Shown here: piece by piece, positions 1,253 to 16,710 of the stretch
How the letters are laid out: the number at the start of each line of letters is the position of its first letter
Position numbering within the stretch: the stretch's first letter is position 1
Virus record (IMG/VR): IMGVR_UViG_3300043395_000491
Span: 1 to 30,749 of that record
Reading direction: 5' to 3' (one strand)
DNA from: a virus
Taxonomy: Duplodnaviria > Caudoviricetes
DNA: 30,749 nt
Program-made: the position numbers and the translations under genes
Notes under the pieces: generated by a model
Database searches by the model: none
Seen by the model: the letters and a program-made list of their open reading frames with translations, nothing else
What the model was told of the DNA's origin: nothing

Positions 1253-1701
1253 ACCCTACCAACGAACCAAAAAGTTAGAATTAATGATAGCATACCTTCA
1301 TCGTAGTCAGTCCATCCTGATAACAGCACTGATGTCCATGAACCATCCTGAAGAAAAGCTAGATATAGTCCAGCAGCTTTAACAACTGAATAAAAGAATA
1401 CAAACCAGTACGTCACTGCTGGTCTAACCAAAGCAGATAGTGATGCTACCCACTTCCAAGCCTTGCTGTCAGACTCTGCTTGTTGTTTGAATGCTTCACC
1501 GATAGCATCTAATTCATGCTCTTGTAGACGTTGATGTCCCTGCTGTAGAGCAAACTCTGCTTGCATCTTAGCGATAGAGACTTCAACATCTAACTTCTTT
1601 AGTTCATGCTCTCTTTCAAACTTCCTATCTAAGATCTTTAGGACTTCAGGAGCAAGTCTAAAAACACCACCGATCAGAGCACCAATGAGTTCAAACATCA
1701 T
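1234..1701 (-). CDS. Putative holin (3-TM, GTA-holin-like)
   Basis: N-terminal hydrophobic helix, coiled region, SALVRPAVTY motif, two TM segments, C-terminal FWFVGR; directly upstream of the endolysin. Confidence 0.7.
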   Translation of the reverse strand: MMFELIGALIGGVFRLAPEVLKILDRKFEREHELKKLDVEVSIAKMQAEFALQQGHQRLQEHELDAIGEAFKQQAESDSKAWKWVASLSALVRPAVTYWFVFFYSVVKAAGLYLAFLQDGSWTSVLLSGWTDYDEGMLSLILTFWFVGRVWESKK

Positions 1702-3680
1702 TATCTCCCTACATCAAACCTGGGTAGTTCTTCTTTAAAGACACCTCGTTGCTCTTGACGATACTTAATAAAAGCATCTCTGAATTCAGGGTTTCTAATA
1801 TTCTCTGACATAAACTGTTTACGCCCAACTTCTCTAGCTTTTTCTACAATCTTCTCTATTCTGGTAGCTCTAACCCTAGGATCTTCGATACGATTCAAAG
1901 CATCTACTCTAGGCGCTAGTGTTCGCTCTACAGCCTCACCAGTGAGTTGACGTAAGCGGCTGAGCTGTTCAGCATCTAATTCCATACCGTACAATCTCTT
2001 AGTAACTGGCCTGATATTCACATAAGGATTATCAAGCAGTTGTTGCACTGGTGTCTGTTCAGCTTCTCTAGAAGCTAAACCAAGTACTTGTCCTGGCGCT
2101 ACAGTCTTAGGCTGACCAAGTATGTCAAACTTCGTTGGTAACTCTTCTCTTAAGCCTGGTATACGGTTCATTAGTGAAGCAACAGCACTATCTACTTCTT
2201 TGTTTACAGGGTCTTGTAGACGTGCTACAGAGCCTACAACAGCAGGTACTAAGGAACCAACTGTGTTGTTTAGTATCTGTGGACCATATCGTTCTGCGTC
2301 TGTTGCAGCCATAACAAAGTTAGCTATACCAGCTAAGAATGTTTTCTCAACTAAGTTATCACGCATCACTGACATAAAACCAGATAACAACTTGTTCGCT
2401 TCAGTGTCTTTTCCTTCACGAACTAAATCTTTATATCGTGACATTACATCAAGTGTAAACCCAAGTGTTGATGATACAGGCTCAATTCTTGAGTAGTCAT
2501 ACCATTGATTACCTATCTTGATAGACATCTCAGGTATACCAGCAGCTTCTTTAGTAGCTCTTTCTTTATCACTATGATGACCAGTTATTATGTCTGATTC
2601 ATACAGACCAATAATGCTTGATATCGTAGCTAATCCCATTAAGTTCTTTGCTACAACATTAGAAAACTTATCTGTACCGGCATAAGCTAAAGCACTTCCT
2701 GGTGTGTACCTAAAGAAATCTTTAGTGATGTTGATTGGTGTCTTAATAAACGGTATTACAAAAGACAACAAAGGATAGTCGTTCCTTAGTTTTGTTAGTG
2801 TATTACCTACCTTACCTAGATCTGCTTGGAATGTATTCTCTTTAGCAAACTGAGTAATAGTCGATGCTTCTTTTTCAAGCCCAGCTAAACGCATCTTAGT
2901 CATCCAGTTTTCATCCTGGAAATCTATAGCTTGTAGCTTAGATACTAATGCCTGTCTAGCAGCAGCAATCTCTTCAGGGGTTGCGTCAAGATTATCTCTC
3001 ATATTAAGCTTACGAAATTGATCATCACTCATACCGTAAGCATAACGATACTTCAATGCATTGATTTCCATTCTACGGAAAAATGCTTTAGAGAATTCAT
3101 CTACCGCTACAGATACCCTAGTTGGTAAACGAACAAGTTCTCCTAATGCTTCAGCAGGTTTAGACGGTTCAATGTAAGTAACAGTACCATCAGCGTTAGT
3201 GGTGATCTTACCTGTACCGATTGCTTTAGTCCGAAAGTTTTCTAAAAACTTATTAACATCTTTAGACCCTACAGCATAGGTTAAATCTAAGGGCGCACCG
3301 TTAAGGAAACCTCTACCAGCAAACCTCCACGCTTCAGCGAACGATGTCACTAGAGCAGGGAACATTGACAATCCTTCACGGATAGTCTTACCTTCAGCAC
3401 CACGTTCAACAACAGACTCAATCATTCGTTCCCAAGGGGCAATAGCACCTTTGAAGAAGGCTGAATAGACGTTAACAACTGGTGTGCCTAAACCAGAGAT
3501 TAGACTATTGACGTAATACTCTTGCATCTTTTTAGCTAACGTAGGATTAGAAGACACAAGCTTTACTACATCCGAAGATAGCTTATTAGCCTCACTAGTT
3601 AGTCCTGATGCTTTAGCGTCTAGCTGCATCCTAGCAAAGTCTTGAAGGAACTTCTTACAATTCTCACTGACCTTTAGCAT
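1701..3680 (-). CDS. Internal virion/ejection protein, C-terminal segment (gp16-like), 659 aa
   Basis: Motifs EYYVNSLISGxxTPxVN, DEFSK, PFIKTPINI, YDYSRIEP as in large podophage internal proteins; last gene of the ejection cluster; GGAG SD; single Cys at residue 8. Confidence 0.75.
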   Translation of the reverse strand: MLKVSENCKKFLQDFARMQLDAKASGLTSEANKLSSDVVKLVSSNPTLAKKMQEYYVNSLISGLGTPVVNVYSAFFKGAIAPWERMIESVVERGAEGKTIREGLSMFPALVTSFAEAWRFAGRGFLNGAPLDLTYAVGSKDVNKFLENFRTKAIGTGKITTNADGTVTYIEPSKPAEALGELVRLPTRVSVAVDEFSKAFFRRMEINALKYRYAYGMSDDQFRKLNMRDNLDATPEEIAAARQALVSKLQAIDFQDENWMTKMRLAGLEKEASTITQFAKENTFQADLGKVGNTLTKLRNDYPLLSFVIPFIKTPINITKDFFRYTPGSALAYAGTDKFSNVVAKNLMGLATISSIIGLYESDIITGHHSDKERATKEAAGIPEMSIKIGNQWYDYSRIEPVSSTLGFTLDVMSRYKDLVREGKDTEANKLLSGFMSVMRDNLVEKTFLAGIANFVMAATDAERYGPQILNNTVGSLVPAVVGSVARLQDPVNKEVDSAVASLMNRIPGLREELPTKFDILGQPKTVAPGQVLGLASREAEQTPVQQLLDNPYVNIRPVTKRLYGMELDAEQLSRLRQLTGEAVERTLAPRVDALNRIEDPRVRATRIEKIVEKAREVGRKQFMSENIRNPEFRDAFIKYRQEQRGVFKEELPRFDVGR

Positions 3681-4276
3681 GGACCAACTCCAAAGACACT
3701 GTTGATAAGTTTATTCTCTTGCTGTGCTTTCTGTATGTTTTGTATATAACGTAGTGCTCTACCAACTTCAGAGCCAGCTCCTTCTAGTGCCGCACGAAGA
3801 GCTACGATATCGTTCTGAGCCTGTACTAACGTAGCTAACGCAGCCTCATCACCTTGCTCTACTAGCTTCAGTAATGCAGAATCATTAGCAGTATTCACTG
3901 CATGAGAGAAACCCCTAGCAGCTACCTCTAGTTCTTCAGCGTTAAAAGCTTTACCCTTAGACCACGCTGTCTTAACCCATTCACCAGCAAAACCAACATC
4001 TTTGTTCGATAAGAACTTATCAACACTATCAATAACTTTCTTGTCCGGTACAACATTTCTTGATGCTGCGGTCATCCTTTGTTGGAACTGTTCACCAATG
4101 CTGTCATAAACATCCCTCATGGTTAGACCATCTAATGTATCTCCACGTTCCATGATATGTTTAGACGCTTCAGGCCCAAGCCTAAATATCTTCTCTCGCT
4201 GTGCTTCAGACAAATCTTGCCACTTATAACGTGGCACAACAGCACGAACAACAGCTTCTGCATTACAGACACGCAT
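3674..4276 (-). CDS. Internal virion/ejection protein, middle segment, 200 aa
   Basis: AAGGAG SD 8 nt before ATG; helical, SEVGRAL motif; overlaps both neighbours; Cys only at residues 4 and 200. Confidence 0.7.
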   Translation of the reverse strand: MRVCNAEAVVRAVVPRYKWQDLSEAQREKIFRLGPEASKHIMERGDTLDGLTMRDVYDSIGEQFQQRMTAASRNVVPDKKVIDSVDKFLSNKDVGFAGEWVKTAWSKGKAFNAEELEVAARGFSHAVNTANDSALLKLVEQGDEAALATLVQAQNDIVALRAALEGAGSEVGRALRYIQNIQKAQQENKLINSVFGVGPC

Positions 4277-5450
4277 CTAGTATTCTCCTTAGTGAAGGCG
4301 TATTCTCTAGTATGTCTATCGCCTCATCAAATGTCTTAGGTAACTGAGTGAGATTAGCTTCATCTAAAGCTTTTAATACATCGTCACTAGCCTTAACATC
4401 TTTTAACACAGTGCGGATATCTTGTCCAGTATCTTTTGCTAATTGCTGTACCTTCGGTGTAGATATACCTTCATCAGCTACTCTAGCAGTCTGTGTAAAG
4501 TAATCATCAGACCTTTTAGTAAGTAAAGCACCTACATTAGGTTGTTCATCAGCAAGCCTTTGCTGCTCCATTTGCATAACCCTAGCAAGCCCTGTAGGGC
4601 CTGTAGGAGCTTCTTCAGTGATAGGACGTAATAACGCAGCTTCTTGCTGTACAGCTTCTCCTGGGGCTACTCTAGCCTGTTCTCTCTGCATGAATTCAGC
4701 AAACCCCATTCTAGGTGGTTGCTCTGATAACAATGCAGCCTGTCTAGGTACAGCACCAGTAGATCCCATTTCTTCAATGATGCGCTGTACTTCAGGAGAT
4801 TCAAAGGTTGCTGGTGTTGTTGTTTGAGTTGTATCTACTGTTTGCTGTGTAGTATCGTCTATAGTTCGACGACCTACGTTTATGTTATCTATTTCTTTTT
4901 TAAACAAACGACCAACAATATCGCTTGCTCCTGCTAAAGCTCCTCCGAGAACAGCACCTGCTCCAGCACCAATAGCCGCTGATTCTATCCTAGATTCGTC
5001 AGGGGTATACAAAGGACGAAGAGCACCTCCAACAGCACCCGCAGCAGCTCCTCCAGTTATTAAACCTTTAGCTCCTTTAAAAAGTAAAGATCCTGGTATA
5101 AGAGAACTTGGGTTAACAATACTACCTGCTAATGTACCTGCCCAACCAGCAACAGGAGATTGCTCACGTAAAGACTGCATACGAGTCTCTGCCATAAGCT
5201 CTTCTTCTGTTGGTTCTCTACCTAATATCTGACGTAGACCAGTTATTTCAGAACCAGCCTCTTGAGAAAAACCAGCTTTAAAAGCTTCTAAAGGACCGCC
5301 CTGAGCTTTGTTTAGTTCGCTTATGATTACTTGGTCTGTTACTCCCTGACCCCTTAAACCTTTGTAATCAATACCTCGTGAACTAGCTAGTTCTTCTGCA
5401 ATAATTGAATCTGAAACACCCTGTCGCTTTAACGATAGGATATTTATCAT
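4263..5450 (-). CDS. Internal virion/ejection protein, N-terminal segment, 395 aa
   Basis: Gly/Ala-rich membrane-insertion-like helices (GGAAAGAVGGAL, GAGAGAVLGGALAG); ATGA overlap with the upstream gene; single Cys at residue 394. Confidence 0.7.
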   Translation of the reverse strand: MINILSLKRQGVSDSIIAEELASSRGIDYKGLRGQGVTDQVIISELNKAQGGPLEAFKAGFSQEAGSEITGLRQILGREPTEEELMAETRMQSLREQSPVAGWAGTLAGSIVNPSSLIPGSLLFKGAKGLITGGAAAGAVGGALRPLYTPDESRIESAAIGAGAGAVLGGALAGASDIVGRLFKKEIDNINVGRRTIDDTTQQTVDTTQTTTPATFESPEVQRIIEEMGSTGAVPRQAALLSEQPPRMGFAEFMQREQARVAPGEAVQQEAALLRPITEEAPTGPTGLARVMQMEQQRLADEQPNVGALLTKRSDDYFTQTARVADEGISTPKVQQLAKDTGQDIRTVLKDVKASDDVLKALDEANLTQLPKTFDEAIDILENTPSLRRILDACL

Positions 5451-6637
5451 TGAAAAGGCCTTACATTATATCTTTGATAAGCTAACTTGTTAGCGTTTTC
5501 TAATATACGGTTTGCTTCTCTAATATTACCACTTCTTTCAGCATCCCTTCTTTTACGAAGAAGACCTTGTATTGTAACATCATTATTAGCTGCTTCAGTT
5601 TGCCGATCCTGTGTGGCTTGTGCTCTTTCAGACAAAGGGACTGATGGTTGTGTTGTTGTTGACGTGTTACTACCGCCTCCTAATAAAGATCTAACAAGAT
5701 TTCTTTGCTCATCTTCTGAAAGATTTCCTTTTTGTTTTTTATCTGTTACAGGAACACCAGTCTTCTCCAATTCTTTTGCTTGTCCGATAGGAATTTCTTT
5801 TACAGACCCGTCTTTTAAGGTAACAACAGCTTTTGTAATTTTACCTTCCAAATCTTTTTCATAACCAACATTAAGGGCTAACTGGCTTGTTTCTTTTGAT
5901 CGTTGTGCTACTAAAGCATCAGAAGCTCGTATATCAGCCTTGAGTTTGTCAACTTCAAGCTGTAGTTTATCCATTGAAAGCTTGGCTTTTGACTTAGCTT
6001 GTTTTTTCCTCTCTTCTGGTGTAAGCGCATCCCACTCAGCTTGTGCTGCTTCCAGTTTAATTTGAGCTTCTGACAACTGAGCGTTACGTACATTAATGTC
6101 TTGTACGTTCTTAGTAAACTCAAGATTCTTTATAGCTTGTTGCAGCGGTCTATCCTGTTCTTCCCAAGTAAACTTAGAAACAGCCCTTCCTTCAGCACCT
6201 TTAGAAGCCTCTGTTTGAGCTTGTGTCAAACCTATTCTGGCCTCAGTTTCTTTTTTACTAAGCTCAGTCTTAGCCTTAGACTCTTCAGCAGCCTTAACCT
6301 GTGCAGCAGCAGCGATAGCTTCCTGTGTTAGACCAAGCCTAGCAGCTTCTTTAGCCATGATCTTGTAAGCTTCTACAGGGTCTTGTCCATCCCATTGTGC
6401 TGAGATAGCATTCTTTAGTTCCTGTCTAGCTGATGCTTCCTTCAGCTTAGGGTCTTCCACACCGAACAACCCTGCAATAGATCTACCAGCCTGTATACCT
6501 GACATACTCATACCAGCTCTAATGCTTTGATATGGTGTTAGTTTAGCTTGAGCTATTGCGTTTTCTCTGTCCTGCTGCATCTGTTGTTGTTGTACATCGT
6601 AGATGCTTGGACCAAATAGACTTTGTTGCTGTGCCAT
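5447..6637 (-). CDS. Internal virion/ejection protein, coiled-coil, 396 aa
   Basis: Q/A/E/K-rich helical protein, GLFGVEDP motif, located in the ejection cluster. Confidence 0.65.
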   Translation of the reverse strand: MAQQQSLFGPSIYDVQQQQMQQDRENAIAQAKLTPYQSIRAGMSMSGIQAGRSIAGLFGVEDPKLKEASARQELKNAISAQWDGQDPVEAYKIMAKEAARLGLTQEAIAAAAQVKAAEESKAKTELSKKETEARIGLTQAQTEASKGAEGRAVSKFTWEEQDRPLQQAIKNLEFTKNVQDINVRNAQLSEAQIKLEAAQAEWDALTPEERKKQAKSKAKLSMDKLQLEVDKLKADIRASDALVAQRSKETSQLALNVGYEKDLEGKITKAVVTLKDGSVKEIPIGQAKELEKTGVPVTDKKQKGNLSEDEQRNLVRSLLGGGSNTSTTTQPSVPLSERAQATQDRQTEAANNDVTIQGLLRKRRDAERSGNIREANRILENANKLAYQRYNVRPFQ

Positions 6638-6646
6638 TACTGTTCC

Positions 6647-8713
6647 TTACATTAGAAACTGACCAATGTCTTGATTACCGTATCCTAGTCCAGTACCAAA
6701 ACCTAAGCTATTGATGTTTCCAGCAGCATTAGGATTTAGTATGTTACTTAACAGTCCTCCAGCAGCACTTCCTAAAGTACCTTGGTTACCTAATATCTGA
6801 TTAGCTACATCCCTTCTAGAATTTAACAAGCCTGCTAAAGCCTCTTGTTGAGCTTGTAAGTTACCTGCTAGACCAAGACTACGTAGTTTAGCTTGTGTAT
6901 CCAAACCAGATAACTGAGATAGTAACTGTTGCTGTACACCAGCCTGTTGAGCATTAGCAGCTAACTGTTGACCTGCTAAGCCTGTCTGAGCCTGTGTCAT
7001 GTAACCCTGTGCTGCTGGTTGAGCGAACAATCCTGCTGCACTGATCCTACCTTGCTGTGCTAGCTGACCTAACTGACCAGACAACTGAGCCTGTGCCATC
7101 TCTTGCTGTGTTAACTGTTGTATAGGTGCTAGTGCAGCAGTGCTTTGGTTGATGAGCGTACCACGTTCTCCTAAAGCAGCCTGTCTAGACTGTAGTTCTC
7201 TCTCTAGTCGCTGTTTAGCAATGGCTTGTTCCTGTGCTAACAGTTCTGGTGAAGATCCACCAAAAGCTGAACCACTTACACCCAATCTTCCTTGAGCACG
7301 TAACCTAGCCTCTGTAGCAAGGCGTTGACGCTCTACTTCAGGTGCGGACAATGCAGCTAACTTGTTGTAGTAATCCTGGCTAAGCTGGTCTACGTTAGTC
7401 ATCAGCGCTGCATTAGCAGACTGTTGAGCTACCTGTGCAAATGGATTATACATCTGTCTTGCATCTTCTGTCAAGGCAGTGTTAACCTGTCCTGTCTTAG
7501 GATCATAGGTAGTTCCGAACAAAGAACCAGTAACACCATAAGGCGTAAACTGACCAACCATGTTAGCAGCAGTTTGGCCTACATTCATCAAACCTTGTTG
7601 TGCTGTACTTCCTAATGCTTGTGTGTAAGGAAGAATACCTTGAGCAATCTGTGTTTGACCTAACCTAGCCCCTTCACCTGCTAAGGAATATTGACTACCT
7701 AACTGATTAGCTAAGTTAGTGTATTCTGTTTGAGTTAGTTGTCCTTGCTGACGTAACTTGTTAGCAGCATCCTGGATCATCGCTAAGTTAGCACCAGAAC
7801 TAATCAAACCACCTAGAACATTCTGTGCGTTAGTGTTCGTTAATCCTTGTAGTAAGGTGTTAGCTACTGTGGTAAACAATGATGCAGGGTTAAACAATGA
7901 TGCAGGGTTAAACAATGTACTGGCAGCGCCTGTTGCTGCACCTGTAGCGGCTGCTGTGGCTGCTGCACCTGTGGCAGCACCTGCAGCGGCTCCAGCAGCA
8001 CCAGCGCCTTCTCCAAGAGCACCTAAGCCACCAAGTTCTGCTGCACCAGCTCCAGCACCACTAAACAAAGAACTTACTTCAGGTAGGCTACTTAAGCCAA
8101 TAGCACCACCAACAATACCTAATGCTTGTAGCCACCCAGCACCCTCAGAAGTATTAGGACTGGTAAGTCTTGTTGTGGTTGGTTGTCCGTAAGCATCATA
8201 AGCTTGAACAACAAGTTTATCACCTTGCTTACCGATTACTTTCTCAACCGTAACATCCTCACCTTTATCTATCTGACGTATGTTGCCTTCAGTACCAAAG
8301 GTTCTTTTAACATCACCAGTTAAGATAGTACCTAAAGGTAAACCACCATCTAAAAAGAACTGATTGATTTCTGCTTTTGTTAAGCCACTAACAGCAGCTA
8401 GATCATCAGCAGTTAATCCATATTGTTTTGCTGTTTGAGCAATACTTTGTGCGTTAGTGGTTACATTGTTGATTAAGTTATCAACAGTGCTTTCTAATGT
8501 ATTACTAGGAACTGTTGACGACACCAACAAAGGACGACTAGTTTCAACACCTTTAGAATTAAACCACGAAGCATCAGAAGGTGAAATAGCACCGATGTTA
8601 ACTAAGTTATCGGTTGTTATTCCAGCATTTTTGAAGAATTGAGCTTTTTGATCTGCCCCTAATTTGTCCCAGTTAGCAGGAAGTATGTTCCTGATTTCCT
8701 CTTCTGTAAACAT
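6647..8713 (-). CDS. Internal virion/DNA pilot (ejection) protein, 688 aa
   Basis: Follows the nozzle gene; Gly/Ala low-complexity hydrophobic tract and Gln-rich helical C-half with FTPYGVT and RLRAQGRLG. Confidence 0.65.
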   Translation of the reverse strand: MFTEEEIRNILPANWDKLGADQKAQFFKNAGITTDNLVNIGAISPSDASWFNSKGVETSRPLLVSSTVPSNTLESTVDNLINNVTTNAQSIAQTAKQYGLTADDLAAVSGLTKAEINQFFLDGGLPLGTILTGDVKRTFGTEGNIRQIDKGEDVTVEKVIGKQGDKLVVQAYDAYGQPTTTRLTSPNTSEGAGWLQALGIVGGAIGLSSLPEVSSLFSGAGAGAAELGGLGALGEGAGAAGAAAGAATGAAATAAATGAATGAASTLFNPASLFNPASLFTTVANTLLQGLTNTNAQNVLGGLISSGANLAMIQDAANKLRQQGQLTQTEYTNLANQLGSQYSLAGEGARLGQTQIAQGILPYTQALGSTAQQGLMNVGQTAANMVGQFTPYGVTGSLFGTTYDPKTGQVNTALTEDARQMYNPFAQVAQQSANAALMTNVDQLSQDYYNKLAALSAPEVERQRLATEARLRAQGRLGVSGSAFGGSSPELLAQEQAIAKQRLERELQSRQAALGERGTLINQSTAALAPIQQLTQQEMAQAQLSGQLGQLAQQGRISAAGLFAQPAAQGYMTQAQTGLAGQQLAANAQQAGVQQQLLSQLSGLDTQAKLRSLGLAGNLQAQQEALAGLLNSRRDVANQILGNQGTLGSAAGGLLSNILNPNAAGNINSLGFGTGLGYGNQDIGQFLM
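7873..7917. repeat. In-frame 18-bp tandem repeat, 2.5 copies
   Basis: TAAACAATGATGCAGGGT x2 plus TAAACAATG; encodes LFNPAS-LFNPAS-LF. Confidence 0.9.
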
Positions 8714-13738: not shown

Positions 13739-14713
13739 TTAGCTAGGGATGATCAAAGCAATACCAGCATCGTTACGAAGCTCTGCAACACCGTACAGCG
13801 TGTCAGCAGTATACAGCGTAGCAAGGTACTCTTGCTTGTACTGAGCCTGTGAGCGAACAGCCATTTGCTCTGCAAGAACCATTGCATCCTTATGGAACAT
13901 CAAGCAAGCACGAGGAGCAGTACCGGACGAAGCATAAGCAGTGTCAGCGTTGCTGCTAACAAACACTTTAACACCGTACACATCACCGATCTGACCGTTA
14001 CGGATGGTGTTGTTACCACCTTGCTCACCAACAAAAGCTTGTTCGGTGAAACGAGCAAGACCCATGAGGGTGTTACGAGCAACAGGAGGAATAACCAAGT
14101 AACGACCATCTTGAGGCACGTTAGCATCATCAAGACGCTGAATCGTACGACGAATAGCAGCATCAGTTAGTGCAGTTGCGTTACCAGCACCAGCACCACC
14201 AACAAAGGCTGTAGTACCATCACCACCGATGTAGGCAGTGGTTGTACCGGATACACTGTAGTCACCAGTAGCACCAGCGGCATGAGAGCCGTTGAAGAGA
14301 CGACCGATCTGGATTAGATCAGAGTCAACCTGCGTAGCCAATGCATAACCAGCATCTTCAGTGTAGAAACGACGAAGCGAAGCAAGAGCTTGAACTTCGA
14401 CGATGTCCTCAATCAAACGTGAGTATTCGTAGTGCTTGTTAATGGTAACTTGCACTTCAGACTCAACGTTCGCCTGAATTGTAACAGCAGTGTTAGCTGC
14501 TTTAGCGAATGCTGCACCACGAGTGGGGCTAGGAATATGAAGCGTATCACCTTTCTTACCACGCATTGTCATCTTGTTGACGAGGTTCGCCATAACAAGT
14601 GATTTCTTGTAAGAAGCGATGATTTCATCAGACCAAATCTCAGGTACAAATTTATCTGCGTTGGTCTTGTTTACGATGGAGGTACTACCTCCAGGATAAG
14701 TTGCTGTAGCCAT
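13739..14713 (-). CDS. Major capsid protein (HK97 fold), 324 aa
   Basis: FVPEIWS, KKGDTLHIP, YALATQVDSDL, LDDANVPQDGR, NGQIGDVYGVKVFVS, DTLYG; follows scaffold, followed by terminator. Confidence 0.93.
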   Translation of the reverse strand: MATATYPGGSTSIVNKTNADKFVPEIWSDEIIASYKKSLVMANLVNKMTMRGKKGDTLHIPSPTRGAAFAKAANTAVTIQANVESEVQVTINKHYEYSRLIEDIVEVQALASLRRFYTEDAGYALATQVDSDLIQIGRLFNGSHAAGATGDYSVSGTTTAYIGGDGTTAFVGGAGAGNATALTDAAIRRTIQRLDDANVPQDGRYLVIPPVARNTLMGLARFTEQAFVGEQGGNNTIRNGQIGDVYGVKVFVSSNADTAYASSGTAPRACLMFHKDAMVLAEQMAVRSQAQYKQEYLATLYTADTLYGVAELRNDAGIALIIPS

Positions 14714-16131: not shown

Positions 16132-16710
16132 ATGAAATCAATGCACTTTGCTAAAAGTAAGCTAACACCAGAAGAAAGACTAGATCTTGTTTGTCGTTTA
16201 GTTCTTCTAGGTAAACAAACTGATGAAATCAGGGTTGATCTAGGTAATGTCAGTCGTCAACGAGTACATCAGTTGTTTAACAAGTTAGTGTCTTTAGGTA
16301 GACTTACGTATGAACAATTACCTAGACAAGCTACGTTACTGAAGAGACGATCTAGTTACAAACAGAAGTGGGGACATTTCCCTGAAGAATCTTATTTTCG
16401 TGCTGATGAGTTCTACCAGATTATTAGAGAGAAGTTCAGACGTAAGAAAGCATCTAACTACAAACATGATTGGGATATAGAGTTCAATGACCTAACATTC
16501 CCTACTCATTGTCCGATATTAGGTATTGAGTTAGACTACCTAGCTAGTTTCCGTTCAGACAACTCTCCAAGCTTTGATAGGATTGATTCCTCTAAAGGAT
16601 ACGTCAAAGGAAACGTAGTTATCTTATCTTGGAGAGCTAACCGTATTAAGAATGATGGTACTGCTGAAGAACATCAAAAGATAGCAGACTTTATGCGATC
16701 TGTGATGTAG
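16132..16710 (+). CDS. HTH plus His-Me-finger (HNH-like) endonuclease, putative homing endonuclease
   Basis: N-terminal HTH (VSRQRVHQL); C-terminal CPILG..SPSFDRIDSSKGYVKGNVVILSWRANRIK; antisense to all neighbours. Confidence 0.8.
   Translation: MKSMHFAKSKLTPEERLDLVCRLVLLGKQTDEIRVDLGNVSRQRVHQLFNKLVSLGRLTYEQLPRQATLLKRRSSYKQKWGHFPEESYFRADEFYQIIREKFRRKKASNYKHDWDIEFNDLTFPTHCPILGIELDYLASFRSDNSPSFDRIDSSKGYVKGNVVILSWRANRIKNDGTAEEHQKIADFMRSVM

Follow-up and report, generated by a model that had tools for sequence, protein, structure and literature searches.

Why should a phage protein be encoded by three overlapping genes, with cysteines at the joints between them and nowhere else? This question is raised by IMG/VR record IMGVR_UViG_3300043395_000491, a 30,749-nucleotide (nt) Caudoviricetes sequence that was analyzed over its whole length and is referred to here as the window. 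An earlier note on this DNA had pointed to three adjacent genes, here termed A, B, and C (395, 200, and 659 amino acids, aa), as an ejection protein in three parts. Our open reading frame (ORF) calls and the cysteine (Cys) positions bore out that the genes overlap and contain only four Cys, all located at the A/B junction (seam 1) or the B/C junction (seam 2); the codon coordinates given earlier for the four residues were correct when recomputed, and the 396- and 688-aa proteins encoded upstream are indeed free of Cys. We conclude from sequence homology that A, B, and C together make up a single ejection protein of the internal virion protein D type. We further consider, with good confidence and judging from sequence comparison and from analogy to a solved structure, that head-to-tail interchain disulfides (A C394 to B C4 and B C200 to C C8) replace the missing peptide bonds.

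The earlier note had proposed that terminal Cys pairs should accompany the split and be absent from fused homologues, and the homologous loci that we collected agree with this. We pooled 335 viral and metagenome loci, many of which are the same contig again, with loci L233-L290 read separately; 19 5'-cut ORFs and 3 short matches were dropped, and 312 ORFs were grouped into 92 clusters at 90%. Among clusters with the upstream gene in view, seam 2 had Cys on both sides in 70/70 and seam 1 in 23/24, the single miss (L043) being a locus with a 47-bp deletion. Clustering at 50% gave 24/24 for seam 2 and 8/8 for seam 1. Only two other Cys were present in 92,057 residues, both in a single locus (L384), and the fused forms contained none at all (21 clusters at 90%, 27,721 residues). 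In clusters at 70%, all 58 seams had Cys on both sides, compared to 1 of 217 other adjacent-gene junctions in the same loci, and that one control junction could be traced to the Met-Cys start of a small first internal protein. The seam pairs are thus beyond chance.

The association was also seen among distant matches. Those of 619-652 aa at 30-35% identity each contained one Cys, at position 7-8 (21/21), five of five further ones had it at position 6-9, and three longer one-piece matches sharing the same C-terminus had no Cys. When the best 150 representatives of the 50% clusters were examined, 44 started at the C domain and 106 were longer; a single Cys at position 4-12 was found in 41 of the 44 standalone C-type proteins, while 97 of the 106 longer forms were Cys-free and none (0/106) had one 15 or fewer residues away from where the seam would lie. 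The loci on genome contigs (n = 48) yielded no split bearing the Cys pair (the clasp). Most of them are one-piece or truncated where the contig ends, two (L250 and L258) contain partial ORFs, and some distant one-piece forms among them bear internal Cys. The one-piece form is the norm in the wider family, and the split is maintained across proteins that are about 25% identical. A 149-aa gene ahead of a 1007-aa homologue (L233-L237) was considered as a Cys-free split; it showed no homology to A and was not counted. Separately, a 771-aa homologue (P0161) starts 157 residues ahead of the usual seam with a lone Cys4 and may mark a third seam position.

Could the Cys be a mere by-product of shared descent or of overlapping stop and start codons, where ATGNTAA leaves no choice but Cys or Trp? 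The ATGCTAA overlap at seam 2 of the window does force TGN, and hence Cys or Trp, before the B stop, and 12 of 41 seam-2 junctions use an overlap of this type. However, across the relatives Cys is kept over at least eight junction geometries ranging from -14 to +9 nt (overlaps of 14, 13, 7, 4, and 1 nt; gaps of 1, 8, and 9 nt), with the upstream Cys being the last, second-last, or third-last residue and both Cys codons in use. It persists at the short overlaps of -4 and -1 and at the gaps of +1, +8, and +9, also as the penultimate residue, whereas the downstream Cys lies outside the overlap and the neighboring residues vary freely. An origin as an overlap by-product is refuted by the non-overlapping junctions, and we give a by-product explanation as a whole practically no chance.

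Programmed frameshifting or read-through, yielding one long protein with the apparent starts being minor, would fit the -1 frame relation common to most seam-2 junctions. Nevertheless, a shared frameshift is unlikely because lineages are not alike in their frame relation: that of seam 1 is +1 in the window but -1 in relatives, and seam 2 of one relative (L141) is in frame across a stop. Shine-Dalgarno (SD)-like sites precede the starts, including the AAGGAG and GGAG that had been reported ahead of B and C and proved correct, no common slippery sequence was visible in the printed junctions, and frameshifting would leave the Cys unexplained. We therefore regard it as extremely improbable, and the original view of real starts rather than frameshift errors stands.

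Nor do the splits arise from assembly errors. Fourteen of the 15 close IMG/VR loci span both seams, and all of these (14/14) share the three-gene arrangement with its four Cys; the fifteenth (L015) ends past seam 1. For 4/4 sequencing runs, drawn from four studies, no indel was listed, and the entire stretch is contained in one contig. A contig from an RNA run (X15) also crosses both seams, which alone says nothing on transcription. The concordant close loci and the runs with no listed indel rule out an assembly artifact, in line with what the earlier note had assumed. True artifact breaks in relatives lack the clasp, unlike the genuine seams: the break in L043 is its deletion relative to L037, and no Cys is found there. 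In another relative (L032), a 55-bp deletion lies behind an intact seam.

The common origin of the three pieces is indicated by several comparisons. Piece C matched the internal virion protein profile PHROG_6651 (E value of 1e-40, profile positions 719-1313 of 1375) and, in tblastn searches, proteins annotated as internal virion protein D. A profile of B plus C matched contiguously the internal virion protein D of ProddE and gp38 of CRP-227 (E value of about 1e-105), confirming the statement of the earlier note that the motifs of these pieces occur within one polypeptide in other podophages. Piece A was matched by phmmer to the N-terminal part of fused relatives (for example, L078, E value of 1e-48), along with a weak PHROG_342 match restricted to residues 89-293. 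Piece B aligns to the region just ahead of the C domain in two-gene and fused relatives; protein searches with B alone returned three matches, all near-identical or broken, and a search with the B alignment returned eight, with no new three-gene form. No match to B was found among annotated phages, and ESM Atlas matches of 0.81 or lower count as no evidence.

An AlphaFold2 model of a fused relative (L085, 883 residues) is almost entirely helical, with a mean predicted local distance difference test score (pLDDT) of 82. The window protein thus shares with the internal virion protein D type its homology, its place as the last internal-protein gene after the nozzle, and a Cys-poor and, as predicted from the L085 model, helical chain; instead of the single polypeptide of >1000 aa typical of this group, there are three genes in 14/14 complete close loci. 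Based on homology and gene position, the A/B/C protein is likely packed in the capsid and ejected upon infection. The description of the protein as gp16-like holds for its position and annotation. Sequence searches against the PDB (profiles A6 and A8, E values up to 1) gave only chance matches, T7 gp16 not among them, and Pfam at an E value of 0.1 gave no lytic transglycosylase match on piece A.

The fused proteins suggest where the cut falls. In local alignments, both seam-2 Cys fall on the same Leu of a short linker in fused proteins, and the L085 model, with low confidence at the seam (pLDDT of 55-61), places this Leu in the opening turn of a helix that follows a break of one residue. C-domain trees, covering 36 or 54 of the 58 clusters at 70%, place two forms with fused A and B deep within three-gene lineages with strong support. 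One of them (L302, positions 2578-4905), nested among three-gene phages and present on one contig, has lost both seam-1 Cys and kept the Cys at the B end. In the other (L384, positions 58-2481, also on one contig), the seam-1 Cys are kept seven residues apart as C593-x6-C600 without any stop/start remnant, and this protein is likely a re-fusion intermediate. A fully fused clade is sister to a two-gene clade (support of 100/98), and a single clade of all split forms was rejected by the approximately unbiased (AU) test (P = 0.0028 with 28 rows and 0.036 with 54 rows). This pattern reflects either one split followed by re-fusion or two splits at the same site, and we prefer the former. Since the window lineage is unplaced at the tree base, the D-x-C motif and the length of B are the grounds for tracing its seam 1 to a common origin.

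The restriction of Cys to the seams, their joint gain and loss in facing pairs, and their mapping to roughly one place in fused proteins all argue for a disulfide across each seam. A metal ion (Zn or Fe) could instead be held by the terminal Cys together with a nearby Asp or thiols of a neighboring copy. The D-x-C motif, invariant at seam 1 (15/15), would suit such a site, and a metal bridge could form already in the cytoplasm during assembly. Yet His occurs in only 4 of 116 seam windows, seam 2 has no conserved second ligand, each seam offers only two thiols, and the one solved analogue, in cyanophage A4, was modeled as a disulfide; we thus find a metal bridge unlikely. Another thiol chemistry, such as intein-like trans-splicing, ligation, lipid anchoring, or closure of B into a ring via C4-C200, would be in keeping with the near-terminal Cys typical of such reactions. 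Nevertheless, there is no intein family match and no conserved His-Asn ahead of the downstream Cys, which eliminates a split intein; a lipoprotein signal would not fit into leaders of just 3-10 residues; and a B ring is disfavored by the loss of Cys in facing pairs, as in L302, which lacks the A-end and B-start Cys and keeps that at the B end. Collectively, we consider these chemistries very improbable.

Several observations weigh against the disulfide interpretation. An invariant Asp sits two positions ahead of the seam-1 Cys and would be compatible with a metal site. The confidence of the model is low exactly at the seam; pairwise mapping placed the two seam-2 Cys at most 5 residues apart in only 11/20 pairs (at most 20 apart in 19/20); and the terminal Cys of the B rows are scattered in the global alignment A8, which we put down to an end-gap effect. 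Three standalone C-type representatives (P0168, P0250, and P0264) have no Cys; they look truncated or misstarted. There were probably just one or two origins per seam, so that the clusters are not independent events and the count of independent events is small. Finally, the A4 precedent is an analogy, as its proteins have no sequence homology to the A/B/C family. The proposal of the earlier note, a fissioned gp16-like protein re-linked by disulfides or metal, is supported in part, namely as to the split, the origin from a common protein, and the Cys pairs that track the split, with the solved A4 bond favoring the disulfide over the metal.

Under the disulfide interpretation, A, B, and C would be translated separately and would dock noncovalently in the reducing cytoplasm, and the seam thiols would oxidize after lysis to give a covalent chain. 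The bond could join either pieces of one protomer or those of neighboring copies. Upon infection, the linked chain would unfold, traverse the tail as a single thread, and remain connected once in the periplasm, and we find it reasonably likely that the link serves as such a tether during ejection. It might alternatively be a redox switch, with the pieces delivered linked and reduction in the host cytoplasm required for their release. The bonds of the phage Q-beta capsid are described as redox-dependent in the available part of one report (PMC13576161), and retention of the split in such divergent proteins could speak for a function of this kind. On the other hand, a peptide bond cannot be opened by reduction, and the one-piece forms that are standard in the family have arisen again inside split clades. 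The redox-triggered release suggested earlier is weakened because fused, peptide-bonded forms are common and evidently functional, and we think a required switch rather unlikely. Reduction-driven release in the cytoplasm may occur but is probably not the purpose of the link, which we read as a stand-in for the peptide bond and not as a needed switch.

The window phage was present in freshwater metagenome runs, its 30.7-kb contig being a whole record of its own. Its minus-strand structural operon runs in the order terminase, portal, tail fibers, scaffold, capsid, adaptor, nozzle-like protein, the 688- and 396-aa proteins, A, B, and C, followed by a possible holin and then a lysozyme; the coordinates of the features discussed here are collected in Table 1. 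No Cys clasp was found at the junctions of the 688- and 396-aa proteins.

Table 1. Positions in the window of the ejection protein genes, their seam cysteines, and associated sites
Feature	Position	Strand	Basis
Piece A, 395 aa, N-terminal portion of the split protein; sole Cys C394	4263..5450	-	phmmer match to the N-terminal region in fused homologues
Piece B, 200 aa, middle portion; sole Cys C4 and C200	3674..4276	-	Aligns, in fused and two-gene relatives, immediately ahead of the C domain
Piece C, 659 aa, C-terminal portion, conserved; sole Cys C8	1701..3680	-	PHROG_6651 profile; tblastn to internal virion protein D
Codon of A C394, upstream Cys of seam 1, D-x-C motif	4269..4271	-	Cys 15/15 and Asp 15/15 in 70% clusters
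Codon of B C4, downstream Cys of seam 1	4265..4267	-	15/15 in 70% clusters
Codon of B C200, upstream Cys of seam 2	3677..3679	-	43/43 in 70% clusters
Codon of C C8, downstream Cys of seam 2	3657..3659	-	43/43 in 70% clusters; invariant in alignments A1 and A6
SD-like AAGGAG, 8 nt before B; A/B overlap of 14 nt	4285..4290	-	
SD-like GGAG, 7 nt before C; B/C overlap of 7 nt	3688..3691	-	
Putative ejection proteins of 688 and 396 aa, both lacking Cys, that follow the nozzle-like gene	5447..8713	-	Ejection role predicted from position

Several further features of the operon were observed. Across otherwise close strains (L001-L029), the 688-aa protein (positions 6647-8713) varies from 644 to 1056 aa with differing N-termini. 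Around positions 5200-6637 of the window, the close strains L001-L014 show three variants in which a given C-terminal end of the 396-aa protein goes with a given N-terminal stretch (∼85 aa) of piece A, which may reflect either a swapped cassette or a noncovalent end-to-end contact; piece B is 92-100% identical across the same strains. The first small internal protein often begins with Met-Cys (L253, L266, L273-L275, L286, ProddE, and CRP-227). An endonuclease gene lies on the opposite strand within the structural operon (positions 16132-16710). The best annotated relatives of the major capsid protein (positions 13739-14713) are cyanopodophages including A-4L (about 30%), whereas the portal is nearest to that of HMO-2011-type phages, pointing to a mosaic head module.

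How podophages move large proteins in order through a narrow tail is an open question, and the finding that every break is clasped suggests that ejection needs continuity of the chain. The seam Cys rule yields point mutants for testing this, and A-4L is editable according to the available part of its paper (PMC12002296). As a signal, seam Cys can be used to find split ejection proteins and to separate real fissions from assembly errors. More generally, we lean, with moderate confidence, toward the proposal that a terminal disulfide is an evolvable substitute for a peptide bond in injected phage proteins: one or two cuts would be tolerated if every new pair of ends gains Cys, the pieces would be stitched extracellularly into one thread, and re-fusion would first trap the pair as C-x6-C and then delete it. 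In this family the device would then have arisen independently, and for the first time the complete series of fission, clasp, and re-fusion would be in view; it would also, if true, be a rare well-sampled case of gene fission offset by a covalent link.

T7 gp16, the last and largest ejection protein of that phage, has an N-terminal lytic transglycosylase domain. The window protein resembles it in being, by position, the last and largest ejection protein, but gave neither a PDB sequence match to it nor a transglycosylase match in Pfam. With the internal virion protein D of T7-like podophages from the sea and from fresh water (ProddE gp34, CRP-227 gp38, HTVC011P, and Syn5 gp45; PHROG_6651) it shares the homologous B-plus-C region, the operon position, and the scarcity of Cys; ProddE gp34 (1268 aa) and CRP-227 gp38 (1303 aa) are, however, single polypeptides without seam Cys, in contrast to the three clasped genes of the window. 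Schitoviridae ejection proteins avoid Cys, according to the available part of one study (PMC11445570), which makes Cys exceptions in such proteins telling. Disulfides have been reported for the tail of crAss001, in the available part of that work not for its cargo proteins (PMC10172136). Our literature search found no statement of a split-versus-fused Cys rule, most subscription papers being outside its coverage.

The closest parallel is cyanophage A4, for which the available part of the report describes, from cryo-electron microscopy (cryo-EM), a Cys1715-Cys5 disulfide that links gp26 to the C-terminal helix of gp27 (PMC12002296; gp26, PDB 9k3a_A). These residues are the sole Cys of gp27 (C1715 of 1717) and of gp26 (C5). 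An A4-type terminal Cys pair is also seen in gp26/gp25 of Pf-WMP3 (L241) and in TR020 (L242), both Saffermanviridae. No sequence homology was detected between the A/B/C family and A4 gp26/gp27 (best E values of 0.004-0.009 in a 13-protein set), and 9k3a_A, although included in the PDB set searched, was not matched by profiles A6 and A8. As in the window, gp27 and gp26 are adjacent ejection genes, last in the operon, with lone Cys at their facing ends; A4 nevertheless has one clasp, its bond seen by cryo-EM, whereas the window would have two, predicted from the genes. Furthermore, the A4 paper, in its available part, neither describes gp27/gp26 as products of gene fission nor draws a comparison with fused forms, while the A/B/C family comprises fused, two-gene, three-gene, and re-fused forms. 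The bond type thus has one solved precedent without detectable homology, and the novelty lies in the protein family and its re-fusion series.

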